Notes under the pieces: model-generated | The model's input: the letters and a program-made list of their open reading frames with translations, nothing else | The model's database searches: none | Told to the model about the DNA's origin: nothing | Source of the DNA: Methanoregulaceae archaeon UBA467 | GTDB taxonomy: Archaea > Halobacteriota > Methanomicrobia > Methanomicrobiales > Methanospirillaceae | DNA: 24,000 nucleotides | Reading direction: 5' to 3' | Assembly: GCA_002503825.1 (NCBI GenBank) | Contig: DASP01000011.1 | Span: 1 to 24,000, forward strand | Shown: piece after piece, positions 1,310 to 24,000 of the stretch | Layout: every line of letters begins with the position of its first letter | How positions within the stretch are numbered: the first letter of the stretch is position 1 | Program-made: the position numbers and the translations under genes

Positions 1310-1384
<75 letters not shown>

Positions 1385-1410
1385 ACGTGCCTTTAATGGT
1401 TGTACCTCGG

Positions 1411-1420
1411 GTTAAAAATA
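1411..1420 (-). promoter_or_regulatory. Candidate archaeal TATA box for tRNA-Glu
   Basis: On the minus strand, ATATTTTTAAC lies about 27-35 nt upstream of the mature tRNA 5' end. Confidence 0.35.
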
Positions 1421-1451
1421 TGTTGTGGAACAGGTATGCAGGATCGCCTGT

Positions 1452-2318: not shown

Positions 2319-2348
2319 GGAAAGTTGTAGTCGGTTCTCCTATTTTTA

Positions 2349-4796: not shown

Positions 4797-6020
4797 TTAC
4801 CTCCATGTCTTGACGGCAAGCACGATGCTTCCGCCCCTGTGAATATCGAGGGCTTTCTCCCTGCCCTGTTCGAGGGTCGCTGCCCATTCTGCCGGGATAT
4901 CACTGATGCCCGGGGTGAAAACACTGCATGCACCGTCACGGGTGCGGAATGCCTCGCCGACGATCACGAGTGCAGAGGGCCTGACCTCGTCGATTGCCCG
5001 TGCAACCTCGGTGGCTGAAAATCCCTCGCAGACGGCACCGTATTCCTGCCCGATAACAAGCGTCAGGTGGCTGTTCCCTGAGAGCGACCGTGCATATGCG
5101 GCTGCCTGGACCGTGGTCATCACGTTCACCCCGCTGTTCGCATTGTCTATTACCCGGATACCCCTGTGCTCTGTCACCGACATCCGGCCCGGAACTGCCT
5201 CAAATTTCGCCAGCCCCGAAGGGTCGGCCCCAAGGAGGCATGCTGCAGATGCTGCGAGCATGAGGGGGGTCCGGTACCCGTCGAGGGCAAGAAGCGGATT
5301 TGTGAATCTCCCGTGGTATTCCCCGTAATGCCAGTTACATGAATTCCCCTGTACAGAGACAAGTGAACCGGCCCTGGTCCCGGACGGGACCGAAACCTTC
5401 TCCCCGGGAGGAACGAGCAGGACCGGCATTCCCTGGCCCGACCTGACCTTCTCGGCGAGTGCGTTCTTTCTTCCGGCTGCACACAGGTAATCTTCAAAGG
5501 ATGTGAGGATACCCATCCGGCCCGCACCGGTAAACCCGAGCGAGACTTCGGCAACAAGCCACCCGCCGGTCTTCATTGCATGCCGTGCAGCAGGGATCAG
5601 TGATGCCGGGGTGATACTCTTTCTCCAGAGCAGGGTCCGTGACGGGTATTCGAATGTCCCGTTCGAGGTATGGAGGACCCCGGGTCCCGGAAGGATGCTG
5701 CACAGGGCATGGGCAGTCGTTGTCTTTCCCCGTGCCCCGGTTATCTCCACGAACGTATCCGGGATATCGTTCCCGAGGATCCAGCGCACTGCAGCATGAT
5801 GCGAGATTACCGGAACCCTGATTCTCTGCAGTACCGGGTGCAGCGGGTCGAGATGGACGGGTGATATGAGAAGGTCGTAGTCTCTCCCGGACACCTGTTC
5901 AACCGTAGTGCCGGTGCATCCCCGGTATACATCAAGGGTGTCAGTGCTGTGCCCCATCTCTTCGAGGTGCCGGGCAAGGTCCTTTCCACCATGTATCGTA
6001 TCGAGCACCAGCAGTTTCAT
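4797..6020 (-). CDS. cfbE: Coenzyme F430 synthetase (MurF-like ATP-dependent ligase)
   Basis: 407 aa. It carries the Mur-ligase P-loop ITGARGKTTTAHAL. The specific call rests on its position between cfbA and cfbD. Confidence 0.8.
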   Translation of the reverse strand: MKLLVLDTIHGGKDLARHLEEMGHSTDTLDVYRGCTGTTVEQVSGRDYDLLISPVHLDPLHPVLQRIRVPVISHHAAVRWILGNDIPDTFVEITGARGKTTTAHALCSILPGPGVLHTSNGTFEYPSRTLLWRKSITPASLIPAARHAMKTGGWLVAEVSLGFTGAGRMGILTSFEDYLCAAGRKNALAEKVRSGQGMPVLLVPPGEKVSVPSGTRAGSLVSVQGNSCNWHYGEYHGRFTNPLLALDGYRTPLMLAASAACLLGADPSGLAKFEAVPGRMSVTEHRGIRVIDNANSGVNVMTTVQAAAYARSLSGNSHLTLVIGQEYGAVCEGFSATEVARAIDEVRPSALVIVGEAFRTRDGACSVFTPGISDIPAEWAATLEQGREKALDIHRGGSIVLAVKTWR

Positions 6021-6027
6021 GGACGGT

Positions 6028-6429
6028 TCAGAGGCGGGTCAGCGCCACTTGTGCGTTCTTTACCATGAGTTCGGCAAGAAGCGGATCACTCCCGATTGGA
6101 TCTGCATAAAGGAGAGGTATGCTTACACCGTTCATTAAAAATGTACCCTTCGTTGTCCCTTCCGGGAGACCGATTATTGCCGGGATGTCCTTGAGGATAT
6201 GGACCCCCTTGGCAAGGAAGAGCGGGACAACAACGAGTGTGTCGATATCTTCCTTCCGGAATTCCTCCATGCACTCTTCGATTGTAGGGGTGTTCATATT
6301 CATAAACCCGCATTTTACAATGAAATCAGGATACTTTGCGGCGATAAGATGCCCTGTTGACTCAACAAGTTCCTTGTTGTGGGGGAGTTTGCTGCCATGG
6401 CCGACCAGTAATATTCCCTTCTTACTCAT
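6028..6429 (-). CDS. cfbA: Small CbiX-type sirohydrochlorin nickelochelatase/cobaltochelatase
   Basis: The 133-aa version starts MSKKGILLVGHGSKLPHNKE. Together with VVPLFLAKGVH this is the CbiX(S) signature. The upstream 30 codons of the track ORF are AT-rich and promoter-like. Confidence 0.8.
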   Translation of the reverse strand: MSKKGILLVGHGSKLPHNKELVESTGHLIAAKYPDFIVKCGFMNMNTPTIEECMEEFRKEDIDTLVVVPLFLAKGVHILKDIPAIIGLPEGTTKGTFLMNGVSIPLLYADPIGSDPLLAELMVKNAQVALTRL

Positions 6430-6526
6430 ACTATACAATGTATTACGGGGACTGTTAAAAATTCTTACCAAATGTATCCCCGGTCCGCAGGTTAGTATAA
6501 AAATAGTGAATTTTTTCATTTGATTT

Positions 6527-6597
6527 ACCGGAACCGGAATTTTTATCGTTATTTTTTTAACGCAGGGTTACCGTTGTTCCTCAAAGCCGGTTCCGGT
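6527..6597. repeat. Perfect 11-bp inverted repeat ACCGGAACCGG / CCGGTTCCGGT flanking a T-rich 49-bp spacer
   Basis: Positions 6527-6537 are the exact reverse complement of 6587-6597. The repeat lies in the 400-bp divergent spacer between cfbA and the marker-9 gene. Confidence 0.6.
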
Positions 6598-6829
6598 TTT
6601 CTCACCGGGAAAATCAGGCCCGTAATCCCCGCGCAGAGACAATATCTGTCAATATTATTGATTATTATATAATCCTGCTCATGTTTTTTCGCATTTTAAC
6701 GAAACGGTATCCCTGTACATCCCTGTCGGGCATGAGAGGATCTGCAGGATGCTCCACCTTTTTATAATCATGGAAAATGAAACTTATAAGGAATTTTTAC
6801 AATTTCGAAAAAAGTTGTGTGTTTTAAAT

Positions 6830-7972
6830 ATGGAAGCCATGCAGTACTACGAGCGTTTTGGTCTCGTTATCAATAACAAGGTCGTAAAAACGCCGTTGGC
6901 GATAGCATCCATGGCCGGGTGCGTGGATGCCGGATATGTCCTTAAGCGGGCTGCCCATATCGGGGCGGCGTTTATCGGAGGATACTCCATTGATCAGCCG
7001 ACCATGGACGCAGGCAGGGAAATGGCAGCAGCCGGAAGGACTGAATTTATCTACGACGACCCGCTTGAAGAACTGAAAAAACAGGTCGCCCTCCTGAGTG
7101 CAACCGATATCCAGGCCGGCCTGAACCTGAGAGGGAGCACCCCTGCTTCATACGCAGCAGTCGCCGATTCAATCGGCGATTCAGTTGTATACGAGATCGA
7201 TGCACATTGCAGGCAGGAGCCGATGATCCGGGCTGGCTGCGGGGAATTTTATTTAAGGAATCACGGGGCGCTTGTCAGCACGATCGAGGCCCTGAAATCC
7301 CACGATGTCACTGTTTCTGTCAAGATGAGGGCCGGGGTGGCACCTGACGACCGGGTGCTTGCAAAAAAGATCTGGAAGGCCGGTGCCGATATCCTGCATG
7401 TCGACCTGATGGACCATGGGTACCAGAAAATCCGCCAGATCAGGAACAGCTGCCCGCTGTTAATAATTGCCAATAATTCAATCAACACCTTCGAACGGAT
7501 GAAGGACATGTTCTCGCATGGTGCCGATATGGTATCCCTTGCGCGGCATTCGGACGAACGGACACTCGCCGGACTCGACGCGGCAATAACCCGCTATGCT
7601 GGTGAACACGGCTGGTACAATTCACCAAAGCAGCTCTGCCGCGGGGGAGATGTCCGGTCTCTTGCATTCTGCTGTATGCCGGTGAAAAGCTGCCCCCTCA
7701 TCCCAACCCTTGAAAAGATCGGCATTTCCCGTGATGAGTATATTGCACTCAAGATGGATTCGGTGAGTGGCACACCCCTCGACCAGGGAAAACACACATG
7801 TTTCGGCAGCCTCGCGTGGTGCTGCAAAGATTCGTCCCCGTGCATGTTCCGTGATATGACCATCCGCCAGGCCGGGATGGAGAGCAGGGAATACATGATT
7901 CACAAGCGGGAACTTTCGGAAAAAATTATGCACCGCCTCTTCGATACAGAAAAGAATGATGAGTCCTGTTGA
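6830..7972 (+). CDS. Methanogenesis marker 9 domain protein: NifR3/Dus-like TIM barrel fused to an 8-Cys C-terminal domain
   Basis: The N-terminal part (PLAIASMAGCVD..) resembles Dus/NifR3 TIM barrels. The C-terminus has 8 Cys, including two [FW]CC..K..C-type motifs (FCCMPVKSC, WCCKDSSPC). I recall these motifs as defining the marker-9 domain. Start chosen at MEAMQYYERF; the track start at 6749 lies in AT-rich, TATA-like sequence. Confidence 0.65.
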   Translation: MEAMQYYERFGLVINNKVVKTPLAIASMAGCVDAGYVLKRAAHIGAAFIGGYSIDQPTMDAGREMAAAGRTEFIYDDPLEELKKQVALLSATDIQAGLNLRGSTPASYAAVADSIGDSVVYEIDAHCRQEPMIRAGCGEFYLRNHGALVSTIEALKSHDVTVSVKMRAGVAPDDRVLAKKIWKAGADILHVDLMDHGYQKIRQIRNSCPLLIIANNSINTFERMKDMFSHGADMVSLARHSDERTLAGLDAAITRYAGEHGWYNSPKQLCRGGDVRSLAFCCMPVKSCPLIPTLEKIGISRDEYIALKMDSVSGTPLDQGKHTCFGSLAWCCKDSSPCMFRDMTIRQAGMESREYMIHKRELSEKIMHRLFDTEKNDESC

Positions 7973-8765
7973 AAGAGCACAACTGGCAATGGTGCTTGAG
8001 GTCTGTGCGTATCCAAAACCCGGAAACGTTGACCGCTGTCACGACTATGCAGATACGCGCCTGGAGCATTTCCTTGCGTCAACTCTTTTTGCACGACCTG
8101 TTTTTGAGAAGGCACAGCGACAGAGGGACCCGATCGGGGCCCTGATCCATGAAGCGGTTGAGCGCACCAATGTGCACTCCGGCGGCAACACCCATTTCGG
8201 TGCGTTTCTCCTCCTTATACCCCTGATTATGGGTGATGGTATCGAGGGCGCAAAAAGGCTTGTCAGGGAGACGACCGTGGACGATGCGGTGGAGTTTTAC
8301 CGGGCGTTTGGAAAGACAGATGTCCGTGTGCTTTCCGGGGATGAGATCGACGTCTCGGATCCGCTGGCAACCGAAGAGATCAGGCGACGCCGCATGACCC
8401 TTTATGATGTCATGCTCCATTCGGCACCAAACGACATGGTAGCGCGGGAATGGCTCAACGGTTTTACCCTCTGCCGGAGAGGGGCGGACCTCCTGGTTGC
8501 ACACGGGTGCGGCAGGCAGGCAATTGTCGCGGCATTTCTTTTTCTCCTCTCCACCGAGCCGGATACGTTCATCATAAAAAAGCACGGGACTGATATTGCG
8601 CGGGTGGTCATGGAGCATGCAATGCAGGTCAGGGAAGGGATCAGGGACATCGAGCAGTTCGATGACGAGTGTATACAAAACGGCATCAATCCCGGCTCTA
8701 TCGCTGATATTATCATTGCGTCTATCTATATCGCACTGGGAGAGGGATGGCAGTGGGACTGCTGA
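7956..8765 (+). CDS. CitG/MdcB-family protein (triphosphoribosyl-dephospho-CoA synthase-like)
   Basis: 269 aa. LEVCAYPKPGNVDR..D and the helical remainder match the CitG family. Its start overlaps the upstream gene by 17 nt. Confidence 0.7.
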   Translation: MMSPVERAQLAMVLEVCAYPKPGNVDRCHDYADTRLEHFLASTLFARPVFEKAQRQRDPIGALIHEAVERTNVHSGGNTHFGAFLLLIPLIMGDGIEGAKRLVRETTVDDAVEFYRAFGKTDVRVLSGDEIDVSDPLATEEIRRRRMTLYDVMLHSAPNDMVAREWLNGFTLCRRGADLLVAHGCGRQAIVAAFLFLLSTEPDTFIIKKHGTDIARVVMEHAMQVREGIRDIEQFDDECIQNGINPGSIADIIIASIYIALGEGWQWDC

Positions 8766-9319
8766 AAGAGGGCATTAACGAAGTAATAGCAACGACTGAT
8801 GGAAATGCCGCACCGATGGGTATTATATTCCGGGACGGCGCGAGCCGGCTTATCGCGTTCAAAGGGAGCCATACCGCTGAAAATATCATGAAGCACGGAT
8901 GGATCGTTGCGAATTTTATCTACGATCCACTCCTCTACGTAAAAACGGCATTCGAAGACCTCGGCAGCGAATGGTTTCTTGAAAAGAACGCAGGCGGAAC
9001 ACGTGTGTGCAGCCTCGCAGGTGCCGAGGCGTGGATTGCATTTGAAGCAAAAATTGAGCGTGAAACGTCTGAAGCGCTGATTGTCGATCTCAATCCCCTT
9101 CACGAACAGGTAGATGCCCTCGCGCTCCACCCGGTCAACAGGGGATTTAACAGCATCATTGAGGCGACGGTCCACGCCACCCGGTATGTCAGGACACATG
9201 ATCCCGTAATGGCAGACTTAATTCTGCATCATTCCGCCCTCGTACGAAAATGCGGCGGAAAAAGGGAACAGGAAGCCCTTGAACTCCTGCTGTCGTATGC
9301 CGGCCCGCTGAAAAAGTGA
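8747..9319 (+). CDS. DUF447-family protein (split-barrel, flavin-binding-like)
   Basis: 190 aa. EVIATT..NAAPMGI and the C-terminal NRGFNSIIEATVHATR resemble DUF447 proteins. These proteins accompany CitG-like genes in H4MPT-using organisms. It overlaps the upstream gene by 19 nt. Confidence 0.55.
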   Translation: MAVGLLKEGINEVIATTDGNAAPMGIIFRDGASRLIAFKGSHTAENIMKHGWIVANFIYDPLLYVKTAFEDLGSEWFLEKNAGGTRVCSLAGAEAWIAFEAKIERETSEALIVDLNPLHEQVDALALHPVNRGFNSIIEATVHATRYVRTHDPVMADLILHHSALVRKCGGKREQEALELLLSYAGPLKK

Positions 9320-9404
9320 TTCCCAGGTATCCGGAAGACCCCTCAGCGGAGTTGTCACCGGAGGGAACTGCATGGTACCCTGCTTTTTCTGTAGACTCCC
9401 GGAA

Positions 9405-9429
9405 CCGTGATGCCGGGCTTGCATCACGG
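9405..9429. terminator. Perfect 9-bp stem / 7-nt loop hairpin in a convergent spacer, preceded by a T5 run (9384-9388)
   Basis: CCGTGATGC-cgggctt-GCATCACGG lies between the DUF447 gene (+) and hypE (-). An oligo-T run is the usual archaeal termination signal for the plus-strand operon. Confidence 0.4.
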
Positions 9430-9455
9430 GATATGAATCTGCGCCTGTTGTCTCT

Positions 9456-10451
9456 CTAGCAGACACGGGGTACGGGATCGCCGATCGGTGGCTCGATAAA
9501 CCGTTCCCCTCCGATCGTAGTCTCCATGATCACGTGTGACCCTTCCGTCACCACACCAATGATGGTTGCGTCCCTGCCGTAGGGATGGGACCTCAGTGCT
9601 TCAAGAACCGCCTGCGCATCCTTTTCCGGGACTCCCATGATGACTTTTCCCTCGTTCGCGACCTGGAGCGGGTCTATCCCGAGCATTTCCGATGCACTGC
9701 GGATGCTCCGCCTGACCGGCAGGGCCTCTTCTTTCACCCTTACCGAGACATGGCTTTTCCGGGCCATTTCATTGATTGCAGCGGCAAAACCGCCACGGGT
9801 AGGGTCTTTCATGGCATGGATCTCACCTGCAGCGAGTGCCTTCTCGACCAGTCCCCAGAGCGGTGCGACGTCCGACCGGATCTGCTCCCCGAGATCGAGG
9901 CCTGAACGCTCGGCCATGATAGCAATGCCGTGATCGCCAAGCGTCCCGGAGACAATAATCCGGTCGCCGGGCTGCAACCCGCAGTCCCTTACTACTTTTT
10001 CGGCGACACCGATCCCGGCGGTATTTATGATAATGCCGTCCAGCGATCCCTTCTCGATAACTTTCGTATCGCCGGTGACAAGGTTCGCCCCGCACTCGCC
10101 GAGGGCTTCGTCCATTGAACGGACGATCCGTTCGAGGTCGGCAACATCAAACCCTTCCTCTATGATCATGCCGCAGGAGAGTGCGACCGGCCTTCCGCCC
10201 ATCATTGCAAGGTCATTGACCGTCCCTGCAACAGCAATACGACCGATATCTCCGCCCGGGAAAAATATCGGCCGAACGACGTGCGAATCGGTCGTAAAAA
10301 CAATATTCTGACCGTTTAATGGAATTACTGCGCCATCATCGAGTGATTCAAGTCCAATCCCGCCGGCATTGTTATGGGTGAGCTTTGTAATAACCTCGAG
10401 GAGCTCACCCATCACCTCTCCGCCTGCACCATGCATCAGATTTACTTTCAT
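9456..10451 (-). CDS. hypE: [NiFe]-hydrogenase maturation protein HypE
   Basis: 331 aa with the AIR-synthase-like fold (GDTKV, DPTRGG). It ends in the diagnostic C-terminal PRVC. Confidence 0.9.
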   Translation of the reverse strand: MKVNLMHGAGGEVMGELLEVITKLTHNNAGGIGLESLDDGAVIPLNGQNIVFTTDSHVVRPIFFPGGDIGRIAVAGTVNDLAMMGGRPVALSCGMIIEEGFDVADLERIVRSMDEALGECGANLVTGDTKVIEKGSLDGIIINTAGIGVAEKVVRDCGLQPGDRIIVSGTLGDHGIAIMAERSGLDLGEQIRSDVAPLWGLVEKALAAGEIHAMKDPTRGGFAAAINEMARKSHVSVRVKEEALPVRRSIRSASEMLGIDPLQVANEGKVIMGVPEKDAQAVLEALRSHPYGRDATIIGVVTEGSHVIMETTIGGERFIEPPIGDPVPRVC

Positions 10452-10789
10452 TCGTCATCCACCTCAATTTCAATATTCGAGACGACCACTTCCCTTCCCC
10501 GGATGATTTCCGGGAGTGCCCCGCAGACCGGACATACAAACCGTTCGTTACCTTCGTATCCGCATTTGCAGCGGGAAACGGTTTTTACGACGTTACAGGC
10601 AAGTTTTGCCCCTTTGAGCAGTTCGTCGTCCTCGATCAGGGTTCCAAAAAGAAATTCGACCTGCTCCGGGTTGATCATCGACATTTCCCCGATATCGACA
10701 TCGACCCGGGTGACCTGGCGGGCATGATGGTCGAGTGCAGTCTTGCGGGCTGTGGCATAGATATCATACGCTATACTGAATTCGTGCAT
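10448..10789 (-). CDS. hypA: Hydrogenase nickel-insertion protein HypA
   Basis: It starts with the Ni-binding MHE motif (MHEFSIAYDI). The Zn site is CKC...CPVC. Its stop overlaps the hypE start (ATGA). The 21 upstream codons of the track ORF are not HypA-like. Confidence 0.85.
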   Translation of the reverse strand: MHEFSIAYDIYATARKTALDHHARQVTRVDVDIGEMSMINPEQVEFLFGTLIEDDELLKGAKLACNVVKTVSRCKCGYEGNERFVCPVCGALPEIIRGREVVVSNIEIEVDDE

Positions 10790-11048
10790 TGTCTGTTCTG
10801 CCCCACACATCTCTTGACGAGAATGACGCACATTCACCGGCATGTCAGGCACGGATCATAGGTGCACTCATTAAGAAATACTTCACAGATCTTGGAGCAC
10901 AATTGCCTTAAAATATTCCAAATTGACGAAAAAACCTGACCCCCACATCAGCTTCCGGAAGATGAGGAACGGTCGGAAAAACCGGGAAAATGTTCCGTAT
11001 TGTGATAGTTGATATAGATTGCAGGCTAAATTCTGTTAAAGCATTATT

Positions 11049-11702
11049 GTGTTTGCATTCATCGATTTTTTAATCCATATCGACCAGAATCTGCCGCTTG
11101 TCATCAGTTACTTCGGCATCTGGACATATGTTGTACTGTTCATAATCATTTTGCTGGAAACAGGTCTTGTCATCACCCCGTTTCTTCCCGGTGATTCGCT
11201 CCTTTTTGTAACGGGTGCTGCCGCTGCGGCAGGGATGCTCGATATATACTGGCTTATTGCGATTTTTATAACCGGGTCGGTAATTGGTGATACCATGAAT
11301 TACTGGATCGGGCATTACGTGGGGGTAAAGGTCCTTATGAACCGCTTCCCGGACCTGGTGAAAAAAGAGTATATCGATCGCACATACGGGTATTTTGAAA
11401 AATACGGTGGCAAAACAATTTTTATTGCACGGTTTATCCCTCTTGTCCGGACATTTGCCCCGTTTCTTGCAGGAGTCGGGCAGATGACATATAAAAAATT
11501 CCTGCTGTACAATGTCCTCGGCGCGGTAACATGGGTAGTTATAACGACCCTCGCAGGATATCTCCTCGGCTCCCACCCTGTCGTTTCACAGAACATCAAC
11601 ATTCTCATCTACGCCGTAATCGCAGTGACGCTGGTCACCGTCATCATCATACTGGCAGGAGTTGTAAGGGGTCTTCTGCACAGAAGGACTTCTTTAAAAT
11701 GA
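11049..11702 (+). CDS. DedA-family membrane protein (GTG start)
   Basis: 217 aa and multi-pass. LLETGLVITPFLPGDSLLF and RFIPLVRTFAPFLAG are DedA signatures. Confidence 0.8.
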   Translation: MFAFIDFLIHIDQNLPLVISYFGIWTYVVLFIIILLETGLVITPFLPGDSLLFVTGAAAAAGMLDIYWLIAIFITGSVIGDTMNYWIGHYVGVKVLMNRFPDLVKKEYIDRTYGYFEKYGGKTIFIARFIPLVRTFAPFLAGVGQMTYKKFLLYNVLGAVTWVVITTLAGYLLGSHPVVSQNINILIYAVIAVTLVTVIIILAGVVRGLLHRRTSLK

Positions 11703-11949
11703 ACGTTACGGGCGCTCCCGGGCAGGATCGCCGGATTGCCCGGTTGAGGGTCCCGTCCCGAAGGACAATTCCCGTGAGGGGAGTTTCCGGCAGTCCGTGA
11801 AGCGCCGGGGGATGATGAGGACCGGGTATTGCTGCAAAACCTGCAACCCCGTGAGTCCGGGAAGCGGCAGACGGAAGAAGGCTGACCCGGGTATTGTTGC
11901 GGACCCGGAAAAATCACGACAGGACTTGTTGAAACTCCTGCCCGGACTT
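11703..11949. other. GC-rich structured convergent spacer: candidate ncRNA of unknown class (strand undetermined)
   Basis: A 10-bp long-range helix pairs 11718-11727 with 11936-11945. Inside it are tetraloop hairpins at 11755-11766, 11769-11782 and 11787-11808. A 14-nt direct repeat occurs at 11822-11835 and 11887-11900. See the finding for this region. Confidence 0.3.
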
Positions 11950-12690
11950 TTACTGGTCTTCGCCGTCTTCGTATACTGAACACACTTCGCGCCTCTTTTT
12001 CCGCGCCCGCGATGTGCAGACTGCAATGGCAATCCCTGCGATAATGACCCCTGACGCGAGGAGAAGCCCGAGGATAAGGTTCTCTTTTAAGAGGTTTATG
12101 ATGTACTGCGCTCCGATGGCGACGGCAAAACTTCCGATGAATGCACCGAGGGTAATCGCGGCAACGACCTCGATCTTTGACATGCCAAGCACCCTTCCGA
12201 CAATCGATCCGCCCACGCCCCCGCTCCCCTGCAGCGGTACCATGACAAATATGACCAGCCCGGCAAAATAAAGTTCTTCGAGCCACGGGCGCTCGCAGAC
12301 GAATGCTCTCCCGTGGTGCATGAATTTCTCTATCCACCCGCCGACGATCGGGATCTTGAGTGCGAGATCAAAATTCCATGCCATAAACAGCCCTGAAAGG
12401 GCATCGAGGAGTGCGATTGAGATTGCAACAAGGTACCACGGGATACCAAGGGCGATGCCGAGAGGGATCATGCTCTCTTTCCCGGCGGGTGGAACAAAAT
12501 ATGCAAGCATTACCCCTCCAAGCAGGAGGAACTGCTCGTACGGAAGATACGCGAAAATAAATAAAATGTAGGCGGATACCAGCAGGAACGGGATGCAGAG
12601 CATGAGTGCCCGGTCAGCCAGCGGATTGATGAATACCTTTTGTTCACCGTCCCACCGGCCGGTTGATCCTGACTGAGTTGAAGACGCCAT
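11950..12690 (-). CDS. Polytopic membrane protein, possibly of the small multidrug-export family (COG2426-like)
   Basis: 246 aa with about 6 hydrophobic segments and the motif VPLQGSGGVGGSIVGRVLG. It has a basic C-terminal tail. The family assignment is tentative. Confidence 0.55.
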   Translation of the reverse strand: MASSTQSGSTGRWDGEQKVFINPLADRALMLCIPFLLVSAYILFIFAYLPYEQFLLLGGVMLAYFVPPAGKESMIPLGIALGIPWYLVAISIALLDALSGLFMAWNFDLALKIPIVGGWIEKFMHHGRAFVCERPWLEELYFAGLVIFVMVPLQGSGGVGGSIVGRVLGMSKIEVVAAITLGAFIGSFAVAIGAQYIINLLKENLILGLLLASGVIIAGIAIAVCTSRARKKRREVCSVYEDGEDQ

Positions 12691-12793
12691 CCAAAAAGTC
12701 CGTATATAGCCATTGTGGCTGATACGTCATTAATGGCGCAGTCAGGCCCGGTTTAACCGTTTAACCGGATCGCCGGGTGAAAAAAATGGGGTA

Positions 12794-13873
12794 TTAATCG
12801 CAGAAATGGGTGAGGACGAGCCCTTCATTGTCTATATGTGTTGCGATACTCAGGGAAAGTCCGATGCGGTCCAGGATGCCGCGTACCTCCTCTTCACCTT
12901 TCGCCGTGATCACTGCTATTGACGGGCCGACAGAACTCATCCCCACGAATTCAAGTCCTGCTTCGCGGAGCCTGCTCATGTAATGGTAAATTTCAAAACT
13001 GTGGTGTTCAACTTCCGCCCTTTTTGATCCCCGGAAATCAATTTCCCAGATAATTTCCCCCATACGTCCGAGGTCATCCTTCTCAAGCGCCGGGATGAGG
13101 TCCATCATGATAAGATACGCCTTGAGCTCGCGGTCCCGGTAGTCAAGGACACGCGCCTTGTTCATCAGGAGGTCAAATTCCTTTGTACCGGCAGACGAGA
13201 TGTCGCTTGGGGGAATGATGATAAAGACATTTTTTCCCGCGGCAAACCGGTGGTGACAGACGAGTGAGAGTTCATCTCCCATGATCGCCATCCCGCCGTG
13301 CATGCTTGCGGCAGGACCGACCCCAGTCTCAAAACCAAACGCAATATGGCCGTCGGCAGTCTCCTCAACGTAATTATATCCGATAAGTCTCCTGAGATCA
13401 TCGCCGTCCAGCGGTGATCCGACCGCATAATTCAGGGCATTTGCAAGGGCGATCATTATCGTACTTGTCGAGCCGAGTCCGACATGCTCGTGCTGGTGGT
13501 CCTGTGCCTTTATCTTAAACCCGCCCCGGTACCCGGTGACCGCTTTGAACACGTCCACAAAATGACGAATAAGGACCGGTCGTGAATATTCAATTTCACA
13601 CCCGTGCGTGGTGCATTCAACTTCAACGCTGCAGTACAGCTGGATGGCAAATCCGACACCTCCCCCACCGGGTCGTGCAGGTGAAAACCGGTTCATGTCA
13701 AGCACGGTGAGGTGGATCCGGGCAGGTGCCCGCACGGTCACACGTCCCTCGACAGGTGCGAGTGTGTAGTCCTTTAAAAGACCGATGGTCTTTATGTTCT
13801 GGCCGGGACAGAAGGTGTTGAACTCGTACTCTACAAGGTCGAGATCTCCACCGCGTATCTTCATGACAGGCAT
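12794..13873 (-). CDS. Beta-ribofuranosylaminobenzene 5'-phosphate (beta-RFAP) synthase, GHMP-kinase-like
   Basis: 359 aa. VRAPARIHLTVLDMN...GGGGVGFAI and HVGLGSTST match the beta-RFAP synthase branch of the GHMP superfamily. This enzyme catalyses the first committed step of methanopterin synthesis. Confidence 0.72.
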   Translation of the reverse strand: MPVMKIRGGDLDLVEYEFNTFCPGQNIKTIGLLKDYTLAPVEGRVTVRAPARIHLTVLDMNRFSPARPGGGGVGFAIQLYCSVEVECTTHGCEIEYSRPVLIRHFVDVFKAVTGYRGGFKIKAQDHQHEHVGLGSTSTIMIALANALNYAVGSPLDGDDLRRLIGYNYVEETADGHIAFGFETGVGPAASMHGGMAIMGDELSLVCHHRFAAGKNVFIIIPPSDISSAGTKEFDLLMNKARVLDYRDRELKAYLIMMDLIPALEKDDLGRMGEIIWEIDFRGSKRAEVEHHSFEIYHYMSRLREAGLEFVGMSSVGPSIAVITAKGEEEVRGILDRIGLSLSIATHIDNEGLVLTHFCD

Positions 13874-13894
13874 TGTGTATACTTCCGGTTTAGA

Positions 13895-14446
13895 TCATGA
13901 TCGATCAAAGAAAATATTTTTCCCTGATGCCTTCAGCGGTATTCCGAATGCGGCAGAACAGGGTATGAGTACACCAAGTGAGAGGGCGGCAACTCCTGCG
14001 CTGTACATGACCCTGTTGTCAAGATTGTGCAGCGAGGCGGTCTTCACTGCAGAGCCCGCGGCTATGCCGAGGTCGGCCATTTTTATCACGCAGTTCGGCC
14101 CGCTGAAGGGTGACGCAGTGTCTTTTCCGGAAGCGGAGTGGTCCTGCATCTCTGAACATGTTGGAAAACCGCACCCCCCGCAGTTGATGCCGACACCTTT
14201 CTGCCCGGCAATGCCGAGGAGGAGGCACCCGTCCGATGCAGCCACATTTTCAGCATCCCTGAGAAAAAAACCAAGTTTCATTGCGTTGCCAAGCCGGGTC
14301 ATCTCTGCGGCAAGAAGCCCGAGGTCTTCCCCGGTAACCCCGTTGATAACGAGGGAGTCAAGCCCCTTTCCCTTGGGTGCAGTCCGGGCGGATAGCGCCA
14401 TGAGCGACATGACCGTCCAGACCGAATCTTTTTCGGGATTTTTCAT
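13895..14446 (-). CDS. DUF2148-type ferredoxin-like domain protein
   Basis: 183 aa. It carries the motif [12 protein letters not shown] and a second Cys region (GPNCVIK). It lies 21 nt upstream of the beta-RFAP synthase gene on the same strand. Confidence 0.6.
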
Positions 14447-14623
14447 AATAACAGAATGTTAGGGGACGGGAACCTGATATCTTCTTTGGAACACCGTGGT
14501 CCGGGATATTCTTCTTCGGATTTTCCAAAGCCGGGTAATGGCCGGACAGGAACAGTTATGGCGGATAGGCAGTATGAAATATATTCTGAACTTAACGGTA
14601 TCTTGAAATTCAGGAGAAATAGT

Positions 14624-14782
14624 ATGAAATCATACCAGTGTTCGATATGCGGGCATATTTACAACCCGGAAAAGGGCGAGCCCGAACAGGGAATCGCGGC
14701 AGGAACAGATTTTTCAGACCTCCCGTCCGACTGGACCTGCCCGGTATGCGGGGCATCGAAAGACAAATTCAATCCTGTGTGA
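14624..14782 (+). CDS. Rubredoxin
   Basis: 52 aa, [18 protein letters not shown]...[14 protein letters not shown], with two CxxCG knuckles. AGGAG lies 8 nt upstream. The track ORF's N-terminal extension is not supported. Confidence 0.9.
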
Positions 14783-17849: not shown

Positions 17850-18815
17850 ATGAAAGAGGAACGAAATTTCAAAGAAATTGTGGCTGAAAGCCGTTATGTA
17901 TTTGTTATCGCTGTTGCCGGCGACAGCGGCTCGGGAAAGACCACATTTACCCGGTCTGTCCGCCACATATTTGGCGACGATCTTGTATCCACCATCACGC
18001 TTGACGATTACCATATTTATGACCGTAAAGAGCGTGAAAGACAAAATATTACTCCCCTCTCCCCGGCCGCAAATGACCTGGCCCGTCTTGAGCATGACGT
18101 TGAAGTCCTCAGGCAGGGAGACCCGGTCCAAAAAATGAGGTATAACCATGAGAAAGGCACTATTGAAGGCCCTTTCAGGTTTATGCCGGCCAAAATACTC
18201 ATACTCGAAGGACTTCATCCAATCGCCACGCCGCGGCTCCGCGAGCTCGTCGATTTTTCAGTGTATGTCGACCCTGCGCCCGATGTAAAACGGGAGTGGA
18301 AGCTCAAGCGCGACATCGAAAACCGGGGGTACTCGGAGCGCGAAGTAACCCTTGAGATGGCACGAAGGGAGTCTGATTACCAGAACTATGTTGCCCCGCA
18401 GCGGGAACTGGCGGATTCAGTCATCAGCATTGAGTTTTCCCGTTTTGGAAGGGAGATCGGGTGGCTGAAAAATATCTACCGGATCAGTCTTTCACAGACC
18501 TGCAGGGAAGGAGTGACCGCGGCTGTCGACCTGGTCATACCTCTTGGAGGACTTTTCTCGCAATGCGACAGGAATTTTCTTTTTAAATATGGATCCGGTG
18601 AAAAAAACGGGAAAAAAACAGGCACCCTTTCAATAGACGGTGAACTGAGCGGGGAAATGATGCAGGGCCTCCTGAAAACAATCAGCCGGGAGACAGGTAT
18701 TGAATATACGGTGCCGCAAACGCCGGATAAAATCTACACTGCAACCGATTTTTTCCAGATGTTTCTTTCATGGAAGATCATTGACGCCCGGATGGCCATT
18801 GAAGAGAGAAGATAA
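17850..18815 (+). CDS. Phosphoribulokinase/uridine-kinase family protein, archaeal PRK-like
   Basis: 321 aa. It has the P-loop AVAGDSGSGKTT, then LDDYH, ILILEGLH and KLKRDIENRGYS. Length and motifs fit archaeal phosphoribulokinase better than uridine kinase. AGGAG lies upstream. Confidence 0.7.
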   Translation: MKEERNFKEIVAESRYVFVIAVAGDSGSGKTTFTRSVRHIFGDDLVSTITLDDYHIYDRKERERQNITPLSPAANDLARLEHDVEVLRQGDPVQKMRYNHEKGTIEGPFRFMPAKILILEGLHPIATPRLRELVDFSVYVDPAPDVKREWKLKRDIENRGYSEREVTLEMARRESDYQNYVAPQRELADSVISIEFSRFGREIGWLKNIYRISLSQTCREGVTAAVDLVIPLGGLFSQCDRNFLFKYGSGEKNGKKTGTLSIDGELSGEMMQGLLKTISRETGIEYTVPQTPDKIYTATDFFQMFLSWKIIDARMAIEERR

Positions 18816-19052: not shown

Positions 19053-20513
19053 ATGGGACGGATCCAGTATTTTTCCACGGTCTTTGGCGAGCTTGGAGGA
19101 ATGCTGATATTTATCAGTCCGGTGACTGTTGTTCCTCTCATCGTTTCACTGATCTACCGGGAATGGGATATGCTCATACCGATGGGGATCGTGCCGGTGC
19201 TGTTTTTCTCACTCGGGGTGCTCCTGAACCGCCTCCCCAGAAAATCCCGGGAAGTACGGCTTAGTGCGGCGCTCTGTTCTGTCGCCCTTGTATGGCTCAC
19301 ATTTGCCGCAGTGAGCAGCATACCCTTCATGCTTACCCTTCACATCTCCTTTACCGACGCCCTTTTCGAAGGAATGGCCGGATGGACCGGCACAGGGTTT
19401 ACCCTTCTCCGGAACCTTGACAGTATCCCGATGACACTGATATTCTGGCGGACATTCATGCAGTGGATCGGGGGGGTGGGCATCATCGCCCTGACCATTA
19501 CCATGGCGAACCGCTCGGGCCTGAGCCAGTCGCCGTTGTTCCGGGCAGACAGCAGGAACGAGCAGATCCTCCCGAACGTCATCGCCACGGGCAGGCAGAT
19601 CTGGGTCAGTTATATCATCCTTACGGTTATTGCCATTGTTCTTATCCTGATTGCCGGCATACCGCTCTGGGACGCGGTAAATATCGGGCTTTCCGCAATA
19701 TCGACCGGGGGATTCACGCCACACCCGGGGGGAATTATCGCCTACCATAACCCGCTCCTCGAATACCTTCTCATCCCGGTCATGATTATCGGCTCCACAC
19801 CGTTCATCCTCTACTACATGATGTACAGGAAGCGGAAAATTGCGCTTTTCGGTGATGAACAGATAAAGATACTCTTCACATTTCTCGTATTCGGGGCGCT
19901 CATTGTTATTTCAGACCTCCTGTTCATCAGCCATTATGCGTGGACCGAGGCGGTCAGGCAGGGCCTTTTCATGACTGCTGCGGCCATCAGCACTACCGGG
20001 TTCCAGAACGGGAATCCCCATGCCTATGCCAGCGTGACCGTCGTCTTCCTTTCCATGCTCATGTTTATCGGGGGATCGTCGGGGAGCACTGCCGGAGGGG
20101 TAAAATTGTCAAGAATTGCACTCGGGTATCGTGGCCTCATCTGGTGGTTCAGGCGTGCCTTCGTCAGGGGCAAGGTCCTTGTCGCATTCAAGTACGAGGG
20201 CCGGACCATCCCTGACCAGATCGCCGAGCCGGAACTGGCAAAAAACATGCTGGTCATCATCCTGTCGGTCATTACCATTTTTGTCGGCACGATGATTATT
20301 CTGCAGTTCCATATTATCTCATTCGGGCTTACCGAGCTGGTTTTTGATATTGTCTCTGCGTTTTCTTCATGCGGGCTTACGACAGGATACGTCTCCCCGA
20401 CAATGCCGCTGATCTCGAAATGGGTTTTTATCTTTGTCATGTGGATCGGCAGGCTTGAGGTAATCCCGGTTATCGTCCTTTTCCTTGGCCTGTTCCAGGG
20501 CTCCGAGCGATAA
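19053..20513 (+). CDS. trkH: TrkH/KtrB-family K+ transporter membrane subunit
   Basis: 486 aa and polytopic. It has repeated selectivity-filter-like motifs (GTGF, STGGF, STTGF, CGLTTGY) and GSTAGGVKLSR. Confidence 0.85.
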   Translation: MGRIQYFSTVFGELGGMLIFISPVTVVPLIVSLIYREWDMLIPMGIVPVLFFSLGVLLNRLPRKSREVRLSAALCSVALVWLTFAAVSSIPFMLTLHISFTDALFEGMAGWTGTGFTLLRNLDSIPMTLIFWRTFMQWIGGVGIIALTITMANRSGLSQSPLFRADSRNEQILPNVIATGRQIWVSYIILTVIAIVLILIAGIPLWDAVNIGLSAISTGGFTPHPGGIIAYHNPLLEYLLIPVMIIGSTPFILYYMMYRKRKIALFGDEQIKILFTFLVFGALIVISDLLFISHYAWTEAVRQGLFMTAAAISTTGFQNGNPHAYASVTVVFLSMLMFIGGSSGSTAGGVKLSRIALGYRGLIWWFRRAFVRGKVLVAFKYEGRTIPDQIAEPELAKNMLVIILSVITIFVGTMIILQFHIISFGLTELVFDIVSAFSSCGLTTGYVSPTMPLISKWVFIFVMWIGRLEVIPVIVLFLGLFQGSER

Positions 20514-20578: not shown

Positions 20579-20588
20579 CTAATATAAA
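20579..20588 (+). promoter_or_regulatory. Candidate TATA box for the nitrogenase-like operon
   Basis: CTAATATAAA abuts ATG 20589 and lies about 25 nt upstream of ATG 20610. This spacing favours a near-leaderless transcript starting at [11 protein letters not shown]. Confidence 0.4.
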
Positions 20589-20609
20589 ATGCAGACAAAC
20601 CTGATCACA

Positions 20610-21428
20610 ATGAAACAGATAGCCCTGTACGGGAAGGGTGGTATCGGAAAATCGACAACTTCAGCAAATTTATCAGCTGCACTCTCGGATCAGGGACTTG
20701 ACATACTTCAGATAGGGTGCGACCCGAAAAGGGACAGCACCCGCATGCTCATGCACGGGCGTCTCATCCCCACTGTCATGGACCTTGTCAGGGAGCGTGG
20801 GGACCGGGACCTTACGGTCGGGGATATCGTCTTTGAAGGGTATAACGGCATCAGGTGCGTGGAAGCGGGTGGTCCGGAGCCGGGCGTCGGATGTGCGGGA
20901 AGGGGTATTATTGCCACCTTCCAGATACTCGAACGCCTGGGGGCCCTGAAAGGGGATATAATCCTCTATGACGTCCTTGGTGACGTGGTCTGCGGCGGGT
21001 TTGCGATGCCGATGCGTGAAGGATATGCAGAGGAGGTCTACCTGGTCACGTCAGGCGAACTGATGTCGCTGTATGCCGCGAATAATATCTGTAAGGCAAT
21101 AAAACGTCTCTCTGCCCGTGTAAAGGGCCGTTGCAGGCTTGCAGGGGTGATATGCAACGCCAAGAATATTGAAAACGAGGAGGAACTGGTATCGGATTTC
21201 GCCAGCCGGATCAACAGCAGGATGGTTGCGTTCATTCCCCGGGACCCGGTCGTCCAGCGTTCGGAGCTGAATAAAATGACCGTTATAGAGTATGCCCCGG
21301 ATTCGTCGCAGGCTGCTGCGTACCGGACGCTCGCAGGGAGTGTCCTTGAAAATACCCGGCTTGATATCCCGGAACCGCTTGAAATTGATGAACTCGAGTC
21401 CCTCGCATATGAATACCTCAAGGACTGA
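20610..21428 (+). CDS. NifH/BchL/CfbC-family Fe-protein-like ATPase
   Basis: It has Walker [10 protein letters not shown], switch [10 protein letters not shown], and both [4Fe-4S] Cys contexts (GVGCAGRGI and [14 protein letters not shown]). An alternative start at 20589 would add 7 aa. Confidence 0.85.
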
Positions 21429-22428
21429 AGGCTGTACTCTTACCGGGGCGCTCTCGGTCACAACGGCGGTACGTGACGGTGTGACGGTCATTCATGGCCC
21501 GAAAGGCTGTGCCCATCATAATTTTTCCCTTTTTCATGCGACGCGAATCGATAACGAATGCTTTTCAGTCCCGCGGATAGTCTCGACAGGCCTCCTTGAG
21601 GACGATATAATTTTCGGCGGCGAAGAAGCGCTTGAACAGACAATCCGGGCTGTAATTCAACGTCGTCCGGCATCGGTCTATGTCCTCTCGACATGTGTCG
21701 TGGAGACTATCGGTGATGATGTGCGGTCTGTATGTGAAAAGATCTGGGACGTCCCGGTCCTCCATATTCCCACGGCAGGGTTTCTCGGGGGCGTATTCCG
21801 GACAGGGTATGTGAATGCCCTCATGGCGTTGTCGGTACTGGCAAAAAAGACCGGTGACTCCCCGGGTGTCAATCTTGTCGGGGAAAAAAACCTTGAATTC
21901 GAAGTTGACCAGCATTTTATGGAAGTATCGAGGCTGATCTCACTCCTCGGAACAGACGTGCATATCAGGTATGTTCGTGACGCGTCCACCGCAGATATCG
22001 GAAGACTCGGCAATGCATCTCTCAACATCCTGCGGGAACCTGCACTTGAACCGGTCGGCAGGCATTTTGAATCGTCGTTTCGGACCCCCTGGATCAGTTC
22101 GTTCCCCGTGGGGCTGTACGGCACCATACGGTTCCTCGAAGAAACCGCCGAAAAACTCGGTGCCGGAAGCAATGCTGCGGTTGAAGAGGAACTGAAGTTC
22201 CAGCGCGAGATGATGGAACGGTTCAGCGACCTGGAATGCCGCACGGTGTGGTTCGGCGAAGGCTTCGAATCATCCCCCGGATTCCCGCTCGTTGAGGAGC
22301 TCATCACGGAACTGGACATGGCACTTGACGAACGGGGAACCTCGCTGACGTTTCCTGACCCGTTCCCGGTAGGGACTGCAGGGATATCACGGCTGCTCCA
22401 CCGGTGGAGGAGGAGGTGCAATGCCTGA
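21409..22428 (+). CDS. Nitrogenase component-1-type oxidoreductase, short NifD/NifE-like subunit (339 aa)
   Basis: The motifs are [17 protein letters not shown] and [12 protein letters not shown]. Start is placed at ATG 21409 (MNTSRTEGC), overlapping the upstream gene by 20 nt. Earlier codons of the track ORF lie inside the nifH-like gene. Confidence 0.7.
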
Positions 22429-23545
22429 CTGTTCAAACCCTCTCTGGCCATGTGCGATGACCGGTGCAGCTGCCTGTATGGCCGGTTTCGAAGGCATGGG
22501 GGTCATCATCCATGGTTCGAGCGGGTGCTATTTTTACCCGGCCACCCTCCTTCACACCCTCCTGCACAGTACGTTTATCAGCGAGGAAGATGTCATCTTC
22601 GGGTCGGAAAAGAGGATTGTCGAGACGATCGATGAGTTGTCACCGCGATATGAGCGTCTTGCGGTACTCCTGACCTGTGTCCCGGCAGTCACCGGCGACG
22701 ACCTTAAACGGATGATTGGCCGTGATGATGTCATAATCGTTGACAGCCCCGGTTTTGCAGGGAGTTTTGAAGAGGGATATACGAGAGCAGTAAGCCAGCT
22801 CCCGTGTATCACAACAGGTGATGTACCGGGCGTCAATATCGACGGTTTAAGTCTTGCCGATCCGTTTTGTCATGGAAATGCGATCGAGATCGAACGGCTG
22901 CTCGGAAAAGCCGGAGTCAGGGTTGCGACACGGTTCTGTCTTGACCGTCTCGATGCACTCGGCCATTGTGCGGATAATACCGTCGGGGCAAACCCTGACC
23001 TTCAGAGCGGAAAGGGAAGATACCTTGGTTCAATGCTCGGCCTGGATAATATCAGGCAGACTGTTACTGAGCTTGCCAGGTATAACCCCCTTGATGCGGA
23101 TGCCGTCTGCCGGGAGGCTGACATGGCCGAAGAACGGCTGGCAGCGGCATGCGATAAGTACCTGCGGCGATATGAGCCGCCCTCTGTCGCGGTATCCGGA
23201 AATTTTTCCTATGCCGTCTTTGCAGCAGGGATGATAGAGCGTTATCTTGACGGTGCGATCTGCACGATCGCTTCACGGAATGCTGTCGGGCCGTCGCCGT
23301 ATAATGTGGTACAGACAGATGACCTTGATGTCATCACCGGCCTGATTTCGTCCAATGACCCTGACCTCGTTGTCGGGTCATCCTTTGAACGCTCTGTCGC
23401 CCCGGGGTGTGCATTTGTGGGTATAATTCCCCCGCTGCGGGGACAGGTGCGGCTCAGGGCCCAGCCGCTTGCCGGTACCGAAGGAGCGCTTAACTTCATG
23501 GAACAGGTTTTAAACGCATGTATTGATCGCCAGAAACGAAAATAG
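22421..23545 (+). CDS. Nitrogenase component-1-type oxidoreductase, short NifK/NifN-like subunit (374 aa)
   Basis: The motifs are WPCAMTGA, HGSSGCYF and LLTCVPAVTGDD. A strong SD (GGAGGAGGAGGTG) lies directly upstream. It overlaps the preceding gene by 8 nt (ATGCCTGA). Confidence 0.7.
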   Translation: MPDCSNPLWPCAMTGAAACMAGFEGMGVIIHGSSGCYFYPATLLHTLLHSTFISEEDVIFGSEKRIVETIDELSPRYERLAVLLTCVPAVTGDDLKRMIGRDDVIIVDSPGFAGSFEEGYTRAVSQLPCITTGDVPGVNIDGLSLADPFCHGNAIEIERLLGKAGVRVATRFCLDRLDALGHCADNTVGANPDLQSGKGRYLGSMLGLDNIRQTVTELARYNPLDADAVCREADMAEERLAAACDKYLRRYEPPSVAVSGNFSYAVFAAGMIERYLDGAICTIASRNAVGPSPYNVVQTDDLDVITGLISSNDPDLVVGSSFERSVAPGCAFVGIIPPLRGQVRLRAQPLAGTEGALNFMEQVLNACIDRQKRK

Positions 23546-23824: not shown

Positions 23825-24000
23825 ATGATGAGAAAGGCAGGCTACATTCAGAAATCCGGCTGGGAAGTCCTTGATTCAGAAGGTATTCCCCGCGAAGTGC
23901 TGGAATTAAGAATTCACGGCGCGACGCTTTGCATCCGTCTTGAAGAACTGTCTGAAACGATTGCAGGGGGACTGACCGCAAGTGTGGAGCGTATCCGCCA
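23825..24000 (+). CDS. 5' part of an unidentified ORF running off the window
   Basis: The open frame reads MMRKAGYIQKSGWEVLDSEGIPREVLELRIHGATLCIRLEELSETIAGG... TTATATA (23779-23785) lies about 40 nt upstream. I recognise no family. Confidence 0.3.
   Translation, partial: MMRKAGYIQKSGWEVLDSEGIPREVLELRIHGATLCIRLEELSETIAGGLTASVERIR

Follow-up and report, generated by a model that had tools for sequence, protein, structure and literature searches.

A Nitrogenase-Like H-D-K Operon of Methanomicrobiales That Probably Shares the Fe Protein of F430 Synthesis

A distinct, order-wide variant of nitrogenase-like reductases is encoded in the Methanomicrobiales. One operon of this kind lies in a 24,000-nucleotide (nt) stretch of Methanoregulaceae archaeon UBA467 (assembly GCA_002503825.1, contig DASP01000011.1, positions 1 to 24,000 of the forward strand), termed the window below. 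It consists of three genes: H, which encodes a NifH-family Fe protein, and D and K, which encode the alpha-type and beta-type subunits of a nitrogenase-like component 1. Judged from its sequence, H is most likely the CfbC of this organism, which would serve CfbD in F430 synthesis as well as D and K. The simplest reading of the locus would be that cfbC is co-transcribed with D and K in Methanomicrobiales. Together, the three products are proposed to form an ATP-driven two-component reductase, CfbC-D2K2, which would act directly on an organic or metallo-tetrapyrrole substrate; this proposal is given somewhat better than an even chance.

The Fe protein and its partners

H matches the Pfam model PF00142 with an E-value of 1.8e-110 (369 bits against a threshold of 25) and NifH chains of the PDB with an E-value of 1e-96. 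It contains the P-loop GKGGIGKS, switches I and II, and both Cys of the [4Fe-4S] cluster, one of them in VVCGGFAMP. All of the motifs quoted in an earlier reading of this DNA, made from the sequence alone, are present in the translations, both the NifH hallmarks of H and the three-Cys motifs of D and K. H is 96% identical to its orthologue in the metagenome-assembled genome PPR_0018.

The assignment of H within the Fe proteins comes from curated models. NF033200 is an “exception” model of NCBI for CfbC, and its 402-bit cut-off separates CfbC from NifH. H passes it with 426.2 bits and falls 0.25 bit short on the nifH model TIGR01287 (394.1 bits, cut-off 394.35). The orthologues in Methanoculleus, in Methanolinea and in a further Methanoregulaceae lineage all pass the CfbC model as well (413–420 bits), and NCBI gives orthologues of H the name CfbC. 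In five other nitrogenase-like operons, from Methanolliviera, two Clostridia, Limnochordia and NifH-NifE-like fusions, the Fe proteins score 351–387 bits, and none passes.

The window also contains a cfbA-cfbE-cfbD-cfbB cluster, in which CfbD scores 501 bits on its NCBIfam model (TIGR03282, cut-off 268). Neither this cluster nor the ~4 kb beyond the adjoining ilvE-like gene holds a cfbC or other NifH-like gene. H is read as CfbC because it passes NF033200, because its orthologues are named CfbC, and because the cfb cluster has no cfbC of its own; CfbD is thus its probable second partner. The sequence-only reading had regarded the operon as an orphan that stands apart from the F430 genes, a view that is not supported. 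That one reductase would feed two catalytic components, CfbD and D/K, has a precedent in NifH, which feeds both NifDK and NifEN.

Alternatively, H may be dedicated to D and K, with a separate, genuine cfbC elsewhere serving CfbD and the operon independent of F430. H and its orthologues lie only 10–24 bits above the CfbC cut-off, H lies just under that of nifH, and H always adjoins D and never cfbD. In some Methanoregula species, additional NifH genes occur within true nif operons (Mboo_1142, supplement of PMC3464626). A genome scan with H recovered H-D-K orthologues only, in a design that could not reveal a second cfbC. Since the CfbC model parts the Methanomicrobiales H proteins from the Fe proteins of the five other operons, and the NCBI names and the incomplete cfb cluster agree with it, a dedicated H is considered unlikely, and CfbC remains the preferred identity.

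A borderline Fe protein also occurs in the alkane-oxidising archaeon Ca. Methanolliviera sp. GoM_oil (684-4337 of its locus), where two component-1 genes of ~480 amino acids (aa) precede a NifH-like gene with scores of 394.0 bits on the nifH model and 386.5 bits on the CfbC model.

Cluster ligands, fold and family of D and K

D and K both match PF00148, with E-values of 3.9e-52 and 2.9e-33. The motifs of K are PC-AMTGA, HGSSGC and LTCVPAVTGDD. Ligand positions were mapped with MAFFT L-INS-i against NifD and NifK of A. vinelandii, which were verified to be 100% identical to PDB chains and found to reproduce the canonical numbering; HMMER alignments to NifE, NifD and NifK of the PDB agree. In these alignments, the P-cluster ligands C62, C88 and C154 of NifD correspond to C9, C34 and C96 of D, and C70, C95 and C153 of NifK correspond to C11, C36 and C86 of K. 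All six are invariant in the family alignments. NifK S188 corresponds to Gly in K. At the position of NifD C275, D has E210, and the residue is Glu or Asp family-wide, while NifD H442 falls opposite a gap. The sequence-only reading had proposed both the P-cluster correspondence and the Glu at Cys275 by eye, and both held. Its term “P-cluster-type” is borne out for the six positions, while the nature of the cluster is inferred from these Cys, which would fit [8Fe-7S] or [4Fe-4S] cluster(s) alike.

Other residues are conserved as well. K contains three more Cys in every family sequence, C4, C19 and C244 (window positions ~22430, ~22475 and ~23150), and the +8 spacing of C19 is that of C78 in A. 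vinelandii NifK. D contains an additional conserved Cys, C109, and conserved His residues at H29, H36, H37, H43 and H331. A possible equivalence of the conserved C-terminal LHRW of D with MHSW of NifD, which holds His442, was dropped, as MAFFT does not align the two and the structure model places LHRW in a terminal helix.

The iron-molybdenum cofactor (FeMo-co) of nitrogenase is held from two parts of NifD, by Cys275 and, in domain III, by His442. AlphaFold (AF2) models of D and K are both confident, with predicted local distance difference test (pLDDT) values of 87.5 and 89.5. The model of K displays the full three-domain beta-type fold, and its best Foldseek matches are VnfK, NifN, AnfK, NifK and BchB, with template modeling (TM) scores of 0.81–0.86. 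The model of D comprises domains I and II, a linker helix and then only ~60 residues (279–339), so that domain III is vestigial as modeled. Foldseek places D at similar TM scores of 0.64–0.75 to NifE, BchB, MarD/K and NifK, which does not discriminate among them. The loss of both FeMo-co ligands and of most of domain III from D argues against a buried complex cofactor and would favor a pocket open to the substrate, such as tetrapyrrole reductases have.

These missing ligands effectively refute a minimal or primitive N2-reducing nitrogenase, which the six P-cluster Cys and an Fe protein almost at the nifH cut-off might otherwise suggest. The reduced domain III points the same way, as do the scores of 72.9 bits for D on the nifD model (cut-off 653) and 49 bits for K on the nifK model (cut-off 427). 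True nif operons occur separately in related species, and the window contains no nifB, nifE/N or nifI (including nifI1/I2, as the sequence-only reading had observed); nifB, nifE and nifN are likewise absent from the ~10-kb flanks.

D and K lie far below the cut-offs of all of the curated NCBIfam models for NifD/K/E/N, CfbD and BchN/B/Y/Z. The best curated match of D is the nifE model with 112.9 bits (cut-off 505), and it scores lower on nifD, BchB (64.6 bits, cut-off 490) and CfbD (44.4 bits, cut-off 268). K scores 41.1 bits on the same CfbD model, the nifN model gives 36 bits (cut-off 327), and the BchN/B/Y/Z models give D and K 19–65 bits against cut-offs of 324–912. There is no Mar model among the NCBIfam matches. 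The earlier conclusion that the system is neither a Mo/V/Fe nitrogenase, nor homomeric CfbD, nor DPOR/COR agrees with these scores, and the heteromeric character of the system is supported as well.

The nifE score of D raises the possibility of a NifEN-like scaffold or carrier, in which D2K2 with H as ATPase would take the NifB-made [Fe8S9C] cluster and mature it or deliver it to the MCR activation complex and to Mtr. NifB has been reported to be essential in methanogens, in which further nitrogenase-like proteins of unassigned function were noted (bioRxiv 10.1101/2023.10.20.563283), and both the MCR activation complex (PMC13474568) and Mtr (bioRxiv 10.64898/2026.07.03.736320) reportedly contain L-type clusters. 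NifE is the best match of D not only in NCBIfam but also in the PDB sequence search and at the top of the Foldseek list, and the Cys after the GDD motif (C109) is common to D and NifE. Nevertheless, the nifE score is less than the cut-off by far, D has no Cys equivalent to NifE Cys250 or NifD Cys275 and only a vestigial domain III, and K retains all three Cys, of which the NifN reference has one. Moreover, nifB is absent from the window and the flanks examined, and the family is found only in Methanomicrobiales where its matches are named, whereas methanogens in general have MCR and Mtr. A carrier role is therefore regarded as improbable beside that of a reductase.

A reductase of another kind is a C–S bond-cleaving enzyme of the MAR/ISR type, which would free sulfur from small organosulfur compounds. 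The characterized Group IV enzymes that do not act on tetrapyrroles cleave C–S bonds (PMC13474568; PMC11423573), and the six P-cluster Cys are common to D/K and MarDK. D, however, lacks a counterpart of MarD Cys270, the window and the flanks examined contain neither a radical SAM gene of the marB/isrB type nor a gene of sulfur metabolism, and the PDB sequence match to MAR chains (E-values of 5e-13 to 2e-11) is weaker than that to NifE or BchB. With no Mar model matching D or K either, this reading is very unlikely, and a tetrapyrrole-type reductase continues to be preferred.

The position of the family among other component-1 proteins was examined by profile search and by phylogeny. Among 1.84 billion representatives, the profile search finds ~16 full-length family clusters at 347 bits or more; next below, at 218 bits or less, come bacterial “nitrogenase component 1” proteins and NifH-NifE-like fusions of ~730 aa. 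Fusions of this type (680–770 aa; P0281, P0287, P0297, P0298 and others) account for ~30 of the 150 best representatives and come from Methanosarcina sp. T3, Desulfococcaceae and metagenome bins. In Methanosarcina sp. T3 (8001-11575 of its locus) the H-D fusion, which keeps Cys at the 275 position, is followed by a separate K-like gene, and the neighbors are uninformative.

In a neighbor-joining tree of 36 sequences (359 columns, 100 bootstraps), the D family (100%) joins uncharacterized bacterial component-1 proteins with 92% support and stays clear of NifD and NifE, and the K family (100%) has the K partner of Limnochordia as a weakly supported sister (41%). The tree contains no reference sequences for Mar, Isr, Nfa or Bch. 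The identity between D and K is 30%, which equals or exceeds their identity to Nif proteins. A lineage-specific D/K duplication was nevertheless rejected, as D and K together are monophyletic in 0 of 100 bootstraps, and the pair therefore comes from an old alpha/beta split rather than a recent duplication.

Pairs of this general kind have been described before. Dos Santos et al. (2012) reported that Proteobacteria, Archaea, Firmicutes and Fibrobacteres contain NifE/N-like pairs in which each subunit conserves three Cys and both FeMo-co ligands are missing, as well as nifH-nifE fusions (PMC3464626), and the review of North and Shafaat (2026) lists several Group IV or nitrogenase-like clades of unassigned function (PMC13474568). 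H-D-K shares the features of the 2012 class, namely adjacent alpha and beta genes, 3+3 Cys and the lack of Cys275 and His442. The class is hence a known unknown, of which H-D-K is a distinct variant, and the novelty claimed in the sequence-only reading was overstated. For Methanomicrobiales H-D-K itself, the literature searched offers generic statements and no named function, and nif-like genes are not discussed in the 2009 Methanomicrobiales genome paper. Groups IV-D and IV-E are reportedly unnamed clades of North et al. 2020. The two labels are used inconsistently between papers, and neither is assigned to H-D-K.

Operon structure, neighborhood and bacterial relatives

H, D and K are three intact open reading frames (ORFs) on one strand (20589-23545; Table 1), with an H/D overlap of 20 nt and a D/K overlap of 8 nt (ATGCCTGA); the lengths of D and K and the overlaps are as the sequence-only reading gave them. 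Against the closest relative, H has a dN/dS of 0.05, D one of 0.09 and K one of 0.15, and all three genes are under purifying selection.

The H start in Table 1 is probably the true one, on a leaderless mRNA, because most orthologues are 270–272 aa long and the TATA-like TAATATAAAA lies at a suitable ~26 nt upstream; this box is the probable promoter of a leaderless H-D-K transcript. D may begin at its upstream alternative, because the residues encoded there match the N-termini of longer orthologues. Gene callers place the start of K at 22457. The start of the sequence-only reading, which keeps the first Cys, appears to be right, because the N-terminus MP-C-NPLWPC is conserved in the family and a Shine-Dalgarno-like GGTGGAGGAGGAGGTG precedes it. 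An AT-rich spacer of ~280 nt with T-runs follows K. No NrpR-type operator (GGAA-N6-TTCC) was seen by eye upstream of H.

Table 1. Coordinates of the H-D-K operon, its signals and other genes of the window.
Feature	Position	Strand	Remarks
H (NifH-family Fe protein, 272 aa)	20610..21428	+	alternative start 20589, giving 279 aa
D (alpha-type, NifD/E-like component-1 subunit, 339 aa)	21409..22428	+	possible start 21388, giving 346 aa
K (beta-type, NifK/N/BchB-like component-1 subunit, 374 aa)	22421..23545	+	complete three-domain fold
TATA-like box (TAATATAAAA)	20580..20589	+	read directly; ~26 nt upstream of ATG 20610
Shine-Dalgarno-like GGTGGAGGAGGAGGTG (strong GGAGG-type)	22403..22418	+	read directly; precedes K start codon 22421
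X (conserved ~150-aa orphan ORF)	23825..24000	+	downstream of K; cut by window end
PRK (archaeal phosphoribulokinase)	17850-18815	+	upstream of TrkH
TrkH-family transporter	19053-20513	+	immediately upstream of H
cfbA	6028-6519	-	NCBIfam model passed
cfbE	4797-6020	-	NCBIfam model passed
cfbD	3728-4792	-	NCBIfam model passed; 354 aa
cfbB	2349-3731	-	NCBIfam model passed
ilvE-like aminotransferase	1452-2318		next after cfbA-cfbE-cfbD-cfbB

The synteny survey that the sequence-only reading had called for found a widely kept locus. A genome scan with H yielded ~65 loci of Methanoregulaceae and other Methanomicrobiales, with TrkH-H-D-K in essentially all of them (parsed from ORFs with phmmer), and a metagenome scan yielded ~70 more, for a total of ~140. 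Homologues of D and K number in the hundreds, and those with a name belong to Methanoculleus, Methanoregula, Methanolinea and unclassified Methanomicrobiales. P0273 proved to be an error-ridden copy of the same Methanomicrobiales locus and is uninformative as a context.

The order in Methanolinea mesophila is PRK-TrkH-H-D-K-X...leuBDC. Methanoculleus sp. Wushi-C6 has the same PRK-TrkH-H-D...leuBDC block with K displaced and inverted (9223-14736 of its locus): five unrelated genes (Usp, bPH_2, an acetyltransferase, a 68-aa ORF and a tautomerase) part it from H-D, and it is intact at 382 aa. The PRK-TrkH-H-D-K-(X)-leuBDC block is thus syntenic from Methanoculleus to Methanolinea. This synteny is old, and no functional link among the neighbors is evident. 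No trkA partner for TrkH was seen in the window.

Gene X has a full length of 150 aa in a related locus (L001:4381-4833). In 67 Methanoregulaceae/Methanolinea loci, and in most of the metagenome loci, a homologue lies after K in the same orientation. X is preceded by an AT-rich region of its own, matches nothing in Pfam or the PDB, and is absent beside the displaced K of Methanoculleus. It is a candidate member of the system.

The CfbD of the window has Ser at the first Cys position, and the sequence-only reading had correctly found this motif to be missing. Between the cfb cluster and H-D-K lie methanogenesis-marker-9/Dus-like, CitG-like, DUF447 and beta-RFAP-synthase-family genes (6749-9319 on the plus strand and 12794-13873 on the minus strand), together with hypE (9456-10451) and hypA (10448-10852). 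In some related contigs, HicAB and a DDE transposase occur in the DNA beyond ilvE (L087).

Relatives of H-D-K in bacteria have been found in Limnochordia, Nitrospinae, Tectomicrobia and metagenomes. The Limnochordia-type operon has the order TonB receptor/ExbD/TonB-Peripla_BP_2-FecCD-H-D-K. A metagenomic relative (JGI contig Ga0171658_1000541, 1878-12962) has the order CbiB-CobT-...-CobA-H-D-K-TonB receptor, in which CobA is an adenosyltransferase, and an aminotransferase gene is also present; its K has Asp at the first P-cluster Cys position. A more distant operon of Clostridium argentinense (6575-14035 of its locus) reads AraC-flavodoxin-H-Peripla_BP_2-FecCD-ABC-D-K, and one H-D fusion adjoins a TonB receptor, FecCD and an ABC ATPase. 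The neighbors of the Nitrospinae and Tectomicrobia pairs are uninformative. Physical merging of nitrogenase-like operons with Peripla_BP_2/FecCD/ABC or TonB-receptor importers recurs in several loci (L081, which is the Clostridium operon, L089/L095/L096 and L154).

Importers of the Peripla_BP_2/FecCD type carry iron-siderophores, heme and cobalamin. The D proteins of several of these relatives resemble that of the Methanomicrobiales in two sites. A carboxylate at NifD-275 is common to the Limnochordia, cob-linked, Clostridium and Methanomicrobiales D, with Asp in the two importer-linked loci checked (L081 and L089), and a C-terminal PVGTAG..RW motif is common to Methanomicrobiales D and the bacterial D proteins in one alignment (A3). 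Earlier papers had already linked nitrogenase-like proteins to metal transport (PMC3464626; PMC8890362).

Proposed reaction and comparison with known systems

In the proposed mechanism, the H dimer would dock over the D-K interface of a D2K2 tetramer. Low-potential electrons, coupled to ATP hydrolysis, would pass from H to an interface Fe-S cluster of [8Fe-7S] or [4Fe-4S] type, and from there directly to an organic or metallo-organic substrate bound by D in an open pocket, a route known from DPOR, COR and CfbCD. Direct transfer is proposed because the ligands of a complex cofactor, and much of its pocket, are missing in D. The conserved carboxylate 210 of D may be a proton donor or a metal contact.

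As to the substrate, a metal-tetrapyrrole related to F430 or to corrinoids is the best guess, because CfbC appears to be shared, D is similar in size to CfbD, and the nearest bacterial relatives lie in a corrinoid- or chelate-import context. A more specific version of the reductase proposal, which is tentative, is that CfbC is the shared donor to CfbD and to a cofactor-free, six-Cys D2K2 that reduces a metal-tetrapyrrole at low potential, as the archaeal member of a wider, hitherto unrecognized “carboxylate-275” family that in bacteria is coupled to corrinoid, heme or siderophore importers. Candidate reactions would be the modification or repair of F430-related compounds, and the reduction of Co(II) or of the ring of a corrinoid.

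Several points weigh against this picture, in addition to a possible dedicated H. The margin of the CfbC call is modest, D2K2 assembly and the docking of H are predicted, and the function of the family is drawn from sequences and models. The tree is indicative only, given its method and its missing references. The Methanomicrobiales operon has no linked tetrapyrrole or importer gene, and the cfb cluster is 14 kb off. Six P-cluster-type Cys are otherwise typical of systems with L-type clusters (MAR and Nif), and K has extra invariant Cys (C4, C19 and C244). On balance, the earlier observation was correct, well above chance, and its interpretation is partly supported.

Nitrogenase-like enzymes of unassigned function are the main open frontier of the superfamily, and each solved case (CfbCD, MAR and ISR) has brought new chemistry. 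The hosts of H-D-K, including Methanoregula, Methanolinea and Methanoculleus, are abundant methanogens of wetlands, digesters and sediments. If H is CfbC, then F430 biosynthesis is wired to a second reductase in these organisms, and environmental surveys of nifH or “nifH-like” genes count a gene with two uses. A compact D/K pair, apparently cofactor-free and with six P-cluster-type Cys, would be a model for what an interface cluster alone can do, and the corrinoid and chelate importers beside the bacterial relatives give a testable substrate class.

Compared to the Mo, V and Fe NifDK systems, H-D-K has the six P-cluster Cys but lacks Cys275 and His442, the equivalog scores and the nifB/E/N context. 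The Group VI NflHDK of Elusimicrobia retains no more than four P-cluster Cys out of six (PMC13474568), whereas all six are invariant here. MarBHDK (Group IV-C) likewise combines six Cys at P-cluster positions with a NifH-like Fe protein. However, MAR has an L-type cluster on MarD Cys270 and His428 and needs MarB or NifB (PMC13474568), while D has Glu in place of that Cys, H-D-K has no radical SAM neighbor, and its sequence is less like MAR than like NifE.

NifEN is the best sequence and structure match of D. Like H-D-K it has no His442, and it has the alpha2beta2 form with an interface cluster, and the Fe protein common to a second enzyme, that are proposed for H-D-K. It differs in having Cys at NifE-250/NifD-275, where D has none, and in the Ser/Cys/Gly of the NifN reference where K has three Cys; H-D-K also lacks a nifB or nifDK context and scores far under the cut-offs. 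DPOR (BchLNB) and COR (BchXYZ) share with H-D-K an ATP-dependent Fe protein and a heterotetramer, which is predicted here. In these enzymes the interface cluster reduces the bound tetrapyrrole directly with no complex cofactor, and the same is proposed for D and K. Foldseek TM scores to these enzymes are similar to those for NifE. The DPOR cluster is held by three Cys and one Asp (PMC13474568), in contrast to the 3+3 Cys here, where K has Cys and not Asp at all three positions.

The uncharacterized 3+3-Cys pairs of the “yellow” clades of Dos Santos et al. (PMC3464626), represented here by the bacterial H-D-K operons, have adjacent D and K genes and three Cys in D, as in the Methanomicrobiales. 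The K proteins of Limnochordia, Nitrospinae and Tectomicrobia also keep three Cys, and the D proteins of the bacterial relatives have Asp/Glu or Ser at NifD-275 and no H442. These D proteins are longer (372–452 aa) with a larger domain III, their genes adjoin TonB/Peripla_BP_2/FecCD importers or cob genes, unlike the Methanomicrobiales operon, and their Fe proteins lie below the CfbC cut-off that Methanomicrobiales H exceeds. In comparison to CfbCD, H-D-K has an Fe protein that passes the CfbC model, a methanogen host, no complex-cofactor ligands, and catalytic subunits of ~340–375 aa, near the length of CfbD. CfbD forms a homomeric enzyme in which every subunit has two cluster Cys (PMC13474568), whereas D and K are distinct subunits that contribute three Cys apiece.

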